In this document: positions 44,515 through 46,400 of the stretch, piece by piece
Layout: every line of letters starts with the position of its first letter
How positions within the stretch are numbered: the stretch's first letter is position 1
DNA from: an uncultured Chloroflexia bacterium
GTDB lineage: Bacteria > Chloroflexota > Dehalococcoidia > DSTF01 > JACRBR01
Assembly (NCBI GenBank): GCA_963701135.1
Contig: OY969567.1
Coordinates: 2,836,554 to 2,900,553 of the forward strand
Length of the DNA: 64,000 nucleotides
Reading direction: 5' to 3'
Position numbers and translations under genes: made by a program
Notes under the pieces: model-generated
The model's input: the letters and a program-made list of their open reading frames with translations, nothing else
What the model was told of the DNA's origin: nothing
The model's database searches: none

Positions 44515-45285
44515 CCTAACCCCCAACCCCTTCCCGGCGCGGGAAGGGGAGAAGGGCTAAGCGCGCCGGATGTGTAGCTGCGGGCGTGAGCGTGGTGCAG
44601 TGGCCACCTAACCCCCGGCCCCTTCCCGGCGCGGGAAGGGGAGAAGGGCTAAGCGCGCCGGATGTGTTGCTGCGGGCGTAAGCAATGCCGGGATGGAACA
44701 GCAGCATGGATCCGACGCGGCGAGCCTGCAAACGCGCATCATCGCCGGCCGGAGAACCTAACCCCCGGCCCCTTCCCGGCGCGGGAAGGGGAGAAGGGCT
44801 ACGCGCGCCGGATGTGTTGCTGCGGGCGTGAGCGTGGTGCAGTGGCCACCTAACCCCCGGCCCCTCCCCACGCCGGGAAGGGGAGAAGGGCTACGCGCGC
44901 CGGATGTGTTGCTGCGGGCGTGAGCAATGCCGGGATGGAACAGCAGCATGGATCCGACGCGGCGAGCCTGCAAACGTGCATCATCGCCGGCCGGAGAACC
45001 TAACCCCCAACCCCTTCCCGGCGCGGGAAGGGGAGAAGGGTTAAGCGCGCCGGATGTGTTGCTGCGGGCGTGAGCAATGCCGGGATGGAACAGCAGCATG
45101 GATCCGACGCGGCGAGCCTGCAAACGTGCATCATCGCCGGCCGGAGAACCTAACCCCCGGCCCCCGGCCCCTTCCCGGCGCGGGAAGGGGAGAAGGGCTA
45201 CGCGCGCCGGATGTGTTGCTGCGGGCGTGAGCGTGGTGCAGTGGCCACCTAACCCCCGGCCCCTCCCCACGCCGGGAAGGGGAGC
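44515..45285. repeat. array of 7 copies of a hairpin-core repeat (units of 92 or 150 bp), abutting the 3' end of the DUF559 gene
   Basis: The core CCTAACCCCCGGCCCCTTCCCggcgcGGGAAGGGGAG occurs at 44515, 44607, 44757, 44849, 44999, 45149 and 45248. The spacers are themselves repeated (two alternating types). Confidence 0.9.
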
Positions 45286-45663
45286 TATGTACGGTGAGCG
45301 GCGGCCAGGATCAGACTCAACACGTGATCGGTGCGTTCGCGCACGTCAGACGCGGCCAGTCTGAGTACGCGGAGCCCACGATCGGCCAGGATCTTGTCAC
45401 GCTCCTGATCGTACGAACGTCTGCCGGGTGTGGATCGGGCCATCCACCTCGACGACGAGCCCGGCAGCATGACAGTAGAAGTCCACAATGAAGCCATCGA
45501 TGATCTGTTGGCGGCGGAAGTGGAGTCCGTCCAACTGATTGCGGCGCAGTCGCTCCCAGAGAAGCGCTTCCTCTCTCGTCGGTTCACGTCTCAGTTGTCG
45601 CGCCCGCTCGACTTTGGCCAGTTGCACGCCCTGACCGATCACGATGTTACGCTTGCTCCGCAT
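45285..45663 (-). pseudogene. DUF559 (Vsr-like endonuclease fold) protein, one frameshift near 45420
   Basis: MRSKRNIVIGQGVQLAKVERARQLRREPTREEALLWERLRRNQLDGLHFRRQQIIDGFIVDFYCHAAGLVVEVDG... continues in another frame as ...YDQERDKILADRGLRVLRLAASDV... Confidence 0.75.
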
Positions 45664-45726
45664 TACACGAGCATACGCCGGCACCGCGGCGCATGGAAGG
45701 GGCTCGACTGTCGTTACCAGGAACAC

Positions 45727-46400
45727 ACGTCAGTGCGCACTCCCCTTCCCTCGCAGGGAAGGGGCCGGGGGTTAGGTTGCGGCATCCAACACCACACGTC
45801 AATGCGCACTCCCCTTCCCTCGCAAGGAAGGGGGGGTTAGGTTGCGGCATCCAACACCACACGTCGGTGCACGTTCCCCTTCCCTCGCAGGGAAGGGGGC
45901 CGGGGGTTAGGTTGCCGGCATCCAACACCACACGTCAGTGCGCACTCCCCTTCCCTCGCAGGGAAGGGGCCGGGGGTTAGGTTGCGGCATCCAACACCAC
46001 ACGTCAGTGCGCGCTCCCCTTCCCTCGCAGGGAAGGGGCCGGGGGTTAGGTTGCGGCATCCAACACCACACGTCGGTGCGCACTCCCCTTCCCTCGCAGG
46101 GAAGGGGCCGGGGGTTAGGTTGCCGGCATCCAACACCTCACGTCAATGCGCACTCCCCTTCCCTCACAGGGAAGGGGCCGGGGGTTAGGTTGCGGCATCC
46201 AACACCACACGTCAGTGCGCACTCCCCTTCCCTCGCAGGGAAGGGGCCGGGGGTTAGGTTGCCGGCATCCAACACCACACGTCAGTGCGCGCTCCCCTTC
46301 CCTGCGAGGGAAGGGGCCGGGGGTTAGGTTGCGGCATCCAACACCACACGTCAGTGCGCGCTCCCCTTCCCTTGCAGGGAAGGGGCCGGGGGTTAAGTTT
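45727..46400. repeat. tandem array of 10 copies of a 65-70-bp (mostly 69-70) unit with the same hairpin core in the opposite orientation, abutting the 5' side of the DUF559 gene
   Basis: The unit is gcgcaCTCCCCTTCCCtcgcaGGGAAGGGGCCGGGGGTTAGGttgcggcatccaacaccacacgtcagt. The marker gttaggttgc occurs at 45771, 45836, 45906, 45976, 46045, 46114, 46184, 46253, 46323 and 46392. Confidence 0.9.

Follow-up and report, generated by a model that had tools for sequence, protein, structure and literature searches.

Association of a DUF559 nuclease gene family with triplex-type hairpin repeats at a Chloroflexota locus and in other bacteria

The window analysed in this work is a 64,000-nt stretch from an uncultured Chloroflexia bacterium (contig OY969567.1, positions 2,836,554 to 2,900,553 of the forward strand), in which a frameshifted DUF559 gene lies between an M50 peptidase gene and a VTT/DedA-family gene and is bracketed by two arrays of a hairpin-forming repeat (Table 1). 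A sequence-only reading of this DNA had likened the locus to a REP/RAYT arrangement with another enzyme and had supposed that DUF559 proteins may mobilise, process or be parasitised by the repeat. We studied the gene and the repeat in the window, at related loci, among dispersed copies of the repeat and in enteric bacteria. All these results show that a Vsr-fold nuclease family and a triplex-capable hairpin class are coupled physically, co-vary in subtype, and move and are gained or lost together. The link between DUF559 and triplex repeats appears to be new, since a literature search covering DUF559, PF04480, Vsr-like proteins, the motif, and repetitive extragenic palindromic (REP) sequences, their REPIN doublets and REP-associated tyrosine transposases (RAYT) gave no report of a DUF559-repeat link.

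The core GGGAAGGGGAG, allowing at most one mismatch, was found 17 times in the window, always at 44541-46371, whereas shuffled sequences lead to expect 0.87 matches. Seven copies are on the + strand, spaced 92, 150, 92, 150, 157 and 92 nt apart, and ten are on the - strand with spacings of 65-71 nt. The seven downstream cores and the ten upstream units with the reverse-complement core that had been described were thus recovered, one spacing of 157 nt being added to those of 92 and 150. TRF also retrieved both arrays (periods 92/150/242 and 69 nt, match 91-95%), and the arms of one array are 90-95% complementary to those of the other, the two arrays being mutually inverted. On the + strand the downstream unit reads ACCTAACCCCC-GG/AA-CCCCTTCCC-loop-GGGAAGGGG-AG, which along the gene strand is a hairpin followed by a G-rich tail; on the same gene strand, the upstream unit consists of a C-rich tail and hairpin (ACCTAACCCCCGGCCCCTTCCC-tgcga-GGGAAGGGGAG) and then a constant spacer of ~30 nt. 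Stems of 8-10 bp are perfect in 15 of the 17 units, the imperfect ones being those at 44861 and 45260 in the downstream array. It had been stated that both arrays abut the open reading frame (ORF); this holds downstream, where the stop codon touches the first unit, but not upstream, where the nearest unit is 76 nt from the ATG. The tail motif ACCTHHCCCC is present 19 times in the window against 0.38 expected, 17 of them at the DUF559 locus. The other two are single copies at 24696 and 26179, diverged solitary units that correspond to the related cores noted earlier near 24690 and 26175. A match at 11382 has no hairpin and is due to chance.

The spacers of both arrays copy their neighbours and match nothing elsewhere outside the window, so the arrays are tandem duplications and not the product of repeated insertions. 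A CRISPR array was ruled out because the spacers inside each array are mutual copies (91-95%) and not unique. With 17 units, this is the largest cluster among ~100 loci, the others having at most 6, and the locus with the very large arrays is also the one with the frameshifted DUF559 gene. No intrinsic terminator was predicted in 44300-46600, and no Rfam family reached its gathering score across the whole window; on five related loci Rfam gave chance microRNA-hairpin matches only (E up to 1).

The frameshift reported previously was confirmed, as Pfam divides DUF559 (PF04480) over two reading frames at profile position 67, the halves scoring 77.5 and 23.2 bits with a gathering cut-off of 20.6. 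DUF559 was the only Pfam domain in the gene product, HUH-Y1 (Y1_Tnp) being absent, and homology favours the ATG at 45663 as start codon. At E <=1e-10, 3,673 relatives of the repaired 125-aa protein were retrieved; their identity is 57-77%, and they come from Chloroflexota, Cyanobacteria, Latescibacteria and other groups. By profile search, the wider family comprises 33,248 clusters at 50% identity, 372 of them at E <=1e-30. Residues E72, D74, H78, D86, R89 and D90 are invariant. The protein matches PDB entry 3HRL (E = 5e-26) and, with E = 1e-3, the homing endonuclease I-Bth0305I, of which only the catalytic domain aligns. An AlphaFold (AF2) model with a predicted local distance difference test (pLDDT) value of 79.9 superposes on 3HRL with a template modelling (TM) score of 0.92 and on I-Bth0305I with one of 0.74. 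Both sequence matches and predicted structure indicate that the protein is a Vsr-fold PD-(D/E)xK nuclease and not a Vsr orthologue. A role with Dcm, as for Vsr, was ruled out: no Vsr model of Pfam or NCBIfam matched, and the neighbouring genes encode M50 and VTT proteins, not a cytosine methyltransferase. Neither a defence system nor a plasmid or phage vehicle was supported, as PADLOC gave just a nuclease-domain similarity to DpdF and the searches yielded 2 plasmid matches and 0 phage matches. The fold search also matched the nuclease domains of AbaSI and PvuRts1I, which depend on 5-hydroxymethylcytosine, and RAP-like proteins of apicomplexan mitoribosomes.

The sequence-only reading had overlooked that this class of repeat is already described and that its tail mirrors the purine arm. 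The class was named BoxC in Escherichia coli, then PIT elements and then TMECO by Holder et al. (2015; PMC4666352), who gave for TMECO the pattern CCCTCNCCC N3-6 GGGNGAGGG N3 GGGNGAGGG [GTC]. They reported 3,610 copies in 262 proteobacterial genomes and an abundance of the element in cyanobacteria, inverted pairs of two subtypes, and a link of the sites to genome rearrangement (PMC4666352). Triplex formation in vitro was shown for TMECO oligonucleotides only, and beside TMECO the authors never encountered a transposase, an integrase or another mobility function (PMC4666352).

In our collection of units, 69% of the tail-anchored sites continue into a perfect stem of at least 7 bp, compared with 1.6% in shuffles, and 52 distinct arm sequences are found; compensatory pairs are present, with UA in 33 and CG in 24 at one position. 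The tail on the G-rich strand reads as the purine arm reversed and not complemented, an A being answered by A or T, as in GGGAA-GGGG with GGGGG-TTAGG, GGAGA-GGGG with GGGG-AGAGG, and GGAAA-GGGGG with GGGGGG-ATAGG. The mirror reading wins in 155 units and the direct reading in 14. A or T in the tail matches 468 of 512 A positions, against 395 +/- 6 with permuted tails, and the modal linker from purine arm to tail is 3 nt. The window unit GGGAAGGGG-CCG-GGGGTTAGG has one mismatch to the mirror. As the tail mirrors the purine arm, it carries the signature of a purine-motif intrastrand triplex. Doublets of the type F(AA)+R(CT) (F and R being mutually inverted units), that is, inverted pairs of two subtypes, were also present. 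The main window units do not match the exact TMECO pattern, to which the solitary units at 24696 and 26179 come close; because their arms are CCCCTTCCC/GGGAAGGGG, the main units form a sister subtype and not TMECO itself. Judged by its sequence, the repeat is a new subtype of the known BoxC/PIT/TMECO intrastrand-triplex class.

For the association between gene and repeat, 80 loci from species-representative genomes, picked by protein patterns alone, were taken together with 4 metagenome loci (84 loci, 1.03 Mb). They contain 227 perfect pyrimidine-arm hairpins, 160 of which are at most 200 nt from a DUF559 gene end. Hairpin density is ~4.8/kb within 200 nt of DUF559 and ~0.07/kb in the remaining ~1 Mb, a difference of ~70-fold, and 81 of the 102 DUF559 genes have a hairpin within 1 kb. 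Other DUF559 genes are thus also flanked by inverted copies. Hosts belong to Chloroflexota, Cyanobacteria, Planctomycetota, Armatimonadota, Bipolaricaulota, Spirochaetota, Bacteroidota and Ignavibacteria, besides metagenome-assembled genomes (MAGs) labelled 'delta proteobacteria' by their record titles; gene family and repeat class co-occur in at least eight phyla. The homologues as called often have N- or C-terminal extensions which are translated repeat, such as NLTPWPPSLRGKGE and PNPPTPFPAREGGA, and this applies to 47 of the 129 extended ORFs, compared with 4 when shuffled.

Across phyla, both the subtype of the hairpin and its layout go with the protein clade. The nearest relatives of the window locus (L001, L002) have the layout F-gene-R; one clade including Cyanobacteria, Anaerolineae, Bipolaricaulota and Gemmataceae has an F-R doublet on each side; Anaerolineales have F-gene-(F)-R with a distinct R subtype; and one clade of 'delta proteobacteria' MAGs has R-gene-F, with tails facing the gene. 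Where copies stand in different contexts, homology stops just beyond the hairpins. The adjacency is also found in A+T-richer cyanobacteria.

Some of these loci have further features of their own. The cyanobacterial doublets L006 (7860-7900), L010 and L013, at matching positions, have a 24-nt palindrome (cgactttgactttagtcaaagtca) that splits the R unit between purine arm and tail and looks like a nested insertion of another tiny repeat. In L013 (Scytonema), a ~490-nt insertion at 7285-7769, with two small antitoxin-like ORFs, lies directly upstream of the doublet and is absent in L006 (Plectonema). In three Chloroflexi (L042 7990-13200, L047 240-10450, L068 8001-12367), DUF559 copies and fragments alternate, at intervals of 1-1.3 kb, with toxin-antitoxin cassettes (TumE, DUF2283, PBECR2, HigB/HigA, BrnA), and a small hairpin before each DUF559 copy gives the look of a cassette array.

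The history of the site could be followed in relatives of the window genome. In a groundwater relative (L002/L003) the order is M50, F-DUF559-RRR, VTT, with one upstream and three downstream units. The identity between window and L002 proteins is 76% for M50, 81% for VTT and 73.6% for DUF559; these values being comparable, the DUF559 gene has been inherited vertically under a constraint similar to that of its neighbours. In L179, whose flanking DNA is 81-86% identical, M50 and VTT adjoin each other, ~290 nt apart, without DUF559 or a repeat unit, so gene and repeats were gained or lost together. At the window's own site they are hence jointly present (L002/L003) or jointly absent (L179). Solitary units are polymorphic as well, since L179 has units at the end of an orthologous gene where the window has none.

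The dispersal of the repeat, which the sequence-only reading had assumed, was borne out by singlets and by inverted doublets that carry no gene. An exact search of metagenome contigs with the 21-nt tail-plus-arm of the window gave 120 stretches (530 kb). DUF559 was present in 8, directly adjoining a unit in 7 of those 8; as the other 112 have no DUF559, most copies are solitary, like REPs. Gene-less inverted doublets with a spacer of ~55 nt fold as ~60-bp hairpins (z = -11), while the folding energy of single units is modestly better than that of shuffles (z about -1.7). Dispersed units share the subtype of the units flanking the resident gene of the same locus and are 3.3 times denser where tailed hairpins flank the gene (27 vs 4 units). 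Of the classifiable units, 66/89 are intergenic; solitary ones lie between convergent genes in 20 cases and between divergent genes in 8, and units occur in either orientation relative to neighbouring genes. The TAA or TGA of the repeat tail is the stop codon of the upstream host gene in L001 (3664-3668), L004 (3912-3916) and L007 (near 7900). Stop-codon targeting is nevertheless minor, as an ORF of 100 codons or more terminates at the TAA of CCTAA in 22% of units, compared with 9-11% for the other frames.

The association extends to enteric bacteria. The single DUF559 gene of E. coli K-12 is ycjD (1351407-1351760, minus strand), whose product is 38% identical to the window protein, and TMECO no. 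9 (1351239-1351204) is on the same strand 168 nt downstream of it; the chance expectation for this proximity is 23 x 854 / 4.64 Mb = ~0.004. A decayed unit lies over the ycjD stop codon (L213; K-12 1351204-1351410), and the last ~45 nt of ycjD are partly duplicated before TMECO no. 9; partial duplication and decayed unit suggest that the site was rearranged in the past. The loop of an F unit contains the DUF559 stop codon in Enterobacter asburiae, Klebsiella quasipneumoniae and Kluyvera, and the inverted partner of this unit comes next. Franconibacter also has the gene-F..R layout, but its stop codon was not located in such a loop. Three distinct positions in the chromosome carry this arrangement. 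The named relatives of YcjD belong to genera reported as TMECO-rich; no Salmonella was found among the best 120 relatives listed. In K. quasipneumoniae (L220, 975-1150), 2-3 tandem units of ~58 nt with the hairpin TCTCCCTCagcgaGAGGGAGA stand between the F unit with the stop codon and the R unit.

The ycjD gene is single-copy in 3,378 of 5,426 complete E. coli genomes (62%), the remainder having no similar DNA. In a spread sample, further megablast matches to TMECO no. 9 numbered ~3.4 with ycjD and ~2.2 without it, and the latter mean is ~1.5 when 281 genomes with zero matches are included; this contrast, roughly twofold in detectable TMECO copies, agrees with the published difference between strains 55989 and IHE3034. 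In O157:H7 (L218), a TetR/RND-efflux (resistance-nodulation-division) island adjoins fabI where K-12 has ycjD, and one enterotoxigenic E. coli strain has an IS1 insertion in ycjD. Taken together, the local enrichment, the co-variation with clade, the joint presence or absence and the enteric cases support the inference of the sequence-only reading.

Features of the window other than the gene and its arrays are also collected in Table 1. The two solitary units are in direct orientation and bracket a GT39-like membrane gene (24856-26179), and their tail (ACCTCACCCC) is that of the E. coli TMECO type. A promoter-like TTGACA..TAGACT is found at 44424-44395 for the VTT/DedA gene. In addition, the window has many intergenic tandem arrays of 7-nt units (AGTTCAC, TCAGCTA, CTCTGCT, GGAGGTT, TAGAACC, GAGAGCA and others), located at 5101-5147, 7705-7744, 10708-10805, 10957-11001, 19524-19586, 20372-20438, 23281-23417, 23541-23584, 52946-52988, 54142-54209, 54355-54384, 55805-55856 and 59649-59761. 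Such arrays recur throughout the genome and have no relation to the hairpin repeat; the end of one orthologous gene carries heptamers in the window and a hairpin unit in L179. A 33-nt tandem repeat (GGGCGCAGCAGGCTGCGGCTCGTACCCGTTCGC) is present in 5.5 copies at 11596-11776 with a 94% match.

Table 1. Coordinates of the DUF559 locus, its flanking genes and the solitary repeat units in the window
Feature	Positions	Strand	Remarks
DUF559 (Vsr-fold PD-(D/E)xK) gene	45285..45663	-	125 codons once repaired; ATG 45663-45661, TAG 45287-45285
Frameshift, one extra T in acgTTcg	45416..45417	-	homologues read H-x-x-Q-x-S-Y-D there
Downstream array, 7 units	44505..45284	+	92- and 150-nt tandem units; tails 44514, 44606, 44756, 44848, 44998, 45148, 45247
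Upstream array, 10 tandem units	45724..46400	-	unit length 65-71 nt
Unique leader, 76 nt, start codon to nearest upstream unit	45664..45739	-	
VTT/DedA-family gene, one flank of insertion site	43665..44414	-	promoter-like TTGACA..TAGACT at 44424-44395
M50 peptidase gene, other flank of insertion site	46435..47154	+	
Solitary diverged unit (ACCTCACCCCCCGGCCCCTCTCC...GAGAGGAG)	24696..24738	+	tail resembles E. coli TMECO type B; upstream of GT39-like membrane gene
Solitary diverged unit	26179..26222	+	starts at TGA stop of GT39-like gene

We consider it probable that the locus is a decayed and tandemly amplified copy of a widespread two-part module of repeat and nuclease similar to REP/RAYT. The first part would be a repeat of ~40 nt with a homopyrimidine arm, a loop, a homopurine arm, ~3 nt and a purine tail mirroring the arm, which may fold as a hairpin plus third strand and, in inverted pairs, as a long palindrome. 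The second would be the 125-aa Vsr-fold nuclease, hydrolytic, whose gene is embedded in or abuts repeat copies. What we infer is that the nuclease would recognise the folded or extruded repeat and nick it, the copying, deletion or amplification of units being left to replication or repair by the host. Doublets without a gene and solitary units would in this case be non-autonomous derivatives. In the window genome, the module would have been inherited vertically between M50 and VTT, the frameshift would have come later, and the flanks would have been amplified to 10 and 7 units. As the enzyme differs, this would be the logic of REP/REPIN-RAYT with a different chemistry (hydrolytic, not HUH-tyrosine), and the locus is not a REP-RAYT member because it has neither an HUH-Y1 domain nor a GTAG tag. 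More tentatively, DUF559 proteins, YcjD included, may be the enzyme of the BoxC/PIT/triplex repeats in general, recognising the hairpin plus third strand, with nicking as the driver of spread, amplification and instability.

Several observations weigh against this interpretation. A 125-aa hydrolase cannot join DNA by itself. Where it can be traced, the gene is stable and vertical, as the identities with L002 indicate, and recent transposition was rejected because an identical protein (P0077) is found in a single context across 13 contigs. The existence of at least three layouts (F-gene-R, R-gene-F, gene-F..R, doublets on both sides) means that there are no fixed transposon ends, and no direct repeats of the kind left by target-site duplication were found at L093, L096, L114, L168 and L001. 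In L082, ATAT stands on both sides as an isolated case. Another isolated case is L045 (2810-3330), where a 13-nt sequence (cactgcgacgata) is located just upstream of DUF559 and again just after the downstream doublet; this could be a duplication from the insertion of gene plus doublet. To continue with the contrary points, 21 of the 102 DUF559 genes have no hairpin within 1 kb, for instance a Nostoc clade. The correlation between ycjD and TMECO is confounded by phylogeny, and E. coli genomes without ycjD retain 1-4 TMECO copies. Finally, Holder et al. saw no in vivo protection of the triplex from dimethyl sulfate (PMC4666352).

Other explanations of the association were considered. DUF559 could be a homing-type selfish gene that cuts gene-less doublets and is copied into them by repair, the repeats being landing pads that spread by other means. 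This we regard as unlikely, even though the closest characterised structural relative is the homing endonuclease I-Bth0305I (PMC3239194), gene-less F..R doublets resemble empty targets and F-gene-R copies resemble a doublet with a gene in its spacer. The empty M50/VTT site of L179 holds no repeat, so at this site the gene did not enter a pre-existing doublet. In enterics, the gene is beside the doublet and not inside it, the tails point towards the gene in the MAGs labelled 'delta proteobacteria', and the window protein has no counterpart of the extra DNA-binding domain of I-Bth0305I.

Equally improbable in our opinion is that DUF559 acts as a host caretaker, a structure-specific nuclease which would remove or repair replication-stalling triplexes or hairpins and limit instability, the pair being co-selected or the repeat regulating the gene. 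Vsr, a repair nickase of the same fold, provides a precedent, the gene is vertical and as conserved as its neighbours, and very large arrays (17 units vs at most 6 elsewhere) occur at one locus only, that of the frameshifted gene. TMECO sites have also been tied to instability and polymerase stops (PMC4666352). However, a caretaker leaves unexplained why subtype-matched repeats and gene move jointly between phyla and chromosomal sites, and why repeats are less numerous, instead of more so, in E. coli genomes that lack ycjD.

RAP-domain proteins, which share the fold of DUF559, are thought to bind or cut RNA. The hairpins could accordingly act in transcripts, as a 3' stabiliser or autoregulatory site, with DUF559 binding or cutting RNA. 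The RAP-like mitoribosomal proteins matched by Foldseek, the location of solitary units between convergent rather than divergent genes (20 vs 8) and the stop codons that some units supply to upstream genes would fit such an element. We nevertheless think it very unlikely, as there is neither a T-tract terminator signal nor an Rfam family match and units are found in both orientations relative to neighbouring genes, which was also the case for TMECO (PMC4666352). RNA does not form purine-motif triplexes, and neither promoter nor terminator activity was seen for PIT elements (PMC4666352).

That both features simply accumulate in the dispensable intergenic DNA of G+C-rich genomes would agree with the more than 90% of units that are not beside the gene and with the single-unit z of about -1.7, but such a coincidence has next to no probability and is in effect refuted by the ~70-fold local enrichment, the clade-specific subtypes, the adjacency found likewise in A+T-richer cyanobacteria and in enterics, where the unit contains the stop codon, and the chance value of ~0.004 in E. 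coli.

Knowledge of BoxC/PIT/TMECO repeats in E. coli dates back to the 1990s. Thousands of copies are spread over proteobacteria and cyanobacteria, where they mark unstable genome sites. To our knowledge, no protein partner, means of spread or function has been found for these repeats. DUF559, in turn, is a very large family without an assigned function. The link described here offers each of them a testable role, provides the repeats with a candidate enzyme, and gives a handle in a model organism, with ycjD, 23 TMECO sites and natural E. coli strains that have or lack the gene. If the module is real, a genome-resident partnership of repeat and enzyme in the style of REP-RAYT would have arisen more than once with unrelated enzymes, and there would be a natural nuclease that may read non-B DNA. 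If the more tentative reading on DUF559 proteins in general also holds, there would be a second REP/RAYT-like system, of different chemistry and present in at least eight phyla, and a function for much of PF04480.

The very-short-patch repair endonuclease Vsr, a nickase, shares the fold and the D-G-x-x-H active-site region; unlike Vsr, the window gene is linked to a repeat and not to a methylation site, and its neighbours are M50 and VTT/DedA genes. I-Bth0305I and the other Vsr-like (EDxHD) homing endonucleases share the catalytic fold and the conserved acidic and His residues, occur in a selfish-gene context, and nick or cleave a pseudopalindromic site (PMC3239194). In contrast to these, the window gene is free-standing, of 125 aa and without an intron or intein host; the protein has no N-terminal NUMOD/helix-turn-helix DNA-binding region, and repeats, not exons, flank the gene.

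Among mobile and repetitive elements, IS200/IS605 and the miniature inverted-repeat transposable elements (Correia, ERIC, RUP, Nezha) are likewise small, have hairpin-forming ends and include non-autonomous derivatives that outnumber coding copies, but neither an HUH or DDE transposase nor a target-site duplication is present here, and the position of the ends relative to the gene varies. The REP/REPIN-RAYT systems (Nunvar, 2010; Bertels and Rainey, 2011, PMC3116915) share with the present case short palindromic extragenic repeats with a conserved tail at the stem foot, singlets, clusters and inverted doublets folding as long hairpins, and a small nuclease gene that stands between inverted copies of such a repeat dispersed over the genome; this gene is low-copy and passed on vertically for the most part, and target duplications are not seen. 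Unlike REP-RAYT, the enzyme is a Vsr-fold PD-(D/E)xK hydrolase and not an HUH-Y1 transposase, the tail is (G)ACCTAACCCCC without a GTAG/CGTC tag at the stem foot, the arms are homopurine/homopyrimidine with a triplex-forming tail, the layout of gene and repeat is variable, and the distribution covers many phyla with signs of horizontal transfer.

The repeat itself agrees best with BoxC/PIT/TMECO (Hoyne and Maher, 2000; Holder et al., 2015). Both have a C-rich arm of 8-11 nt, a loop of 3-6 nt, a complementary G-rich arm and then, after a further loop of ~3 nt (CCG or TTA), another G-rich block as mirror image of the first, with a GTC end; both are intergenic, occur as singlets and inverted pairs of two subtypes, and are linked to local rearrangement. 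BoxC/PIT/TMECO elements are abundant in enterics and cyanobacteria, and the two solitary units of the window almost match type B. The main window units differ from TMECO in lying outside the published pattern, with CCCCTTCCC/GGGAAGGGG as arms and GGGGGTTAGG as tail, and in forming direct tandem arrays of 7 and 10; and whereas the published work on TMECO found neither an enzyme nor a mobility gene associated with it, the class to which the window repeat belongs is linked to DUF559.

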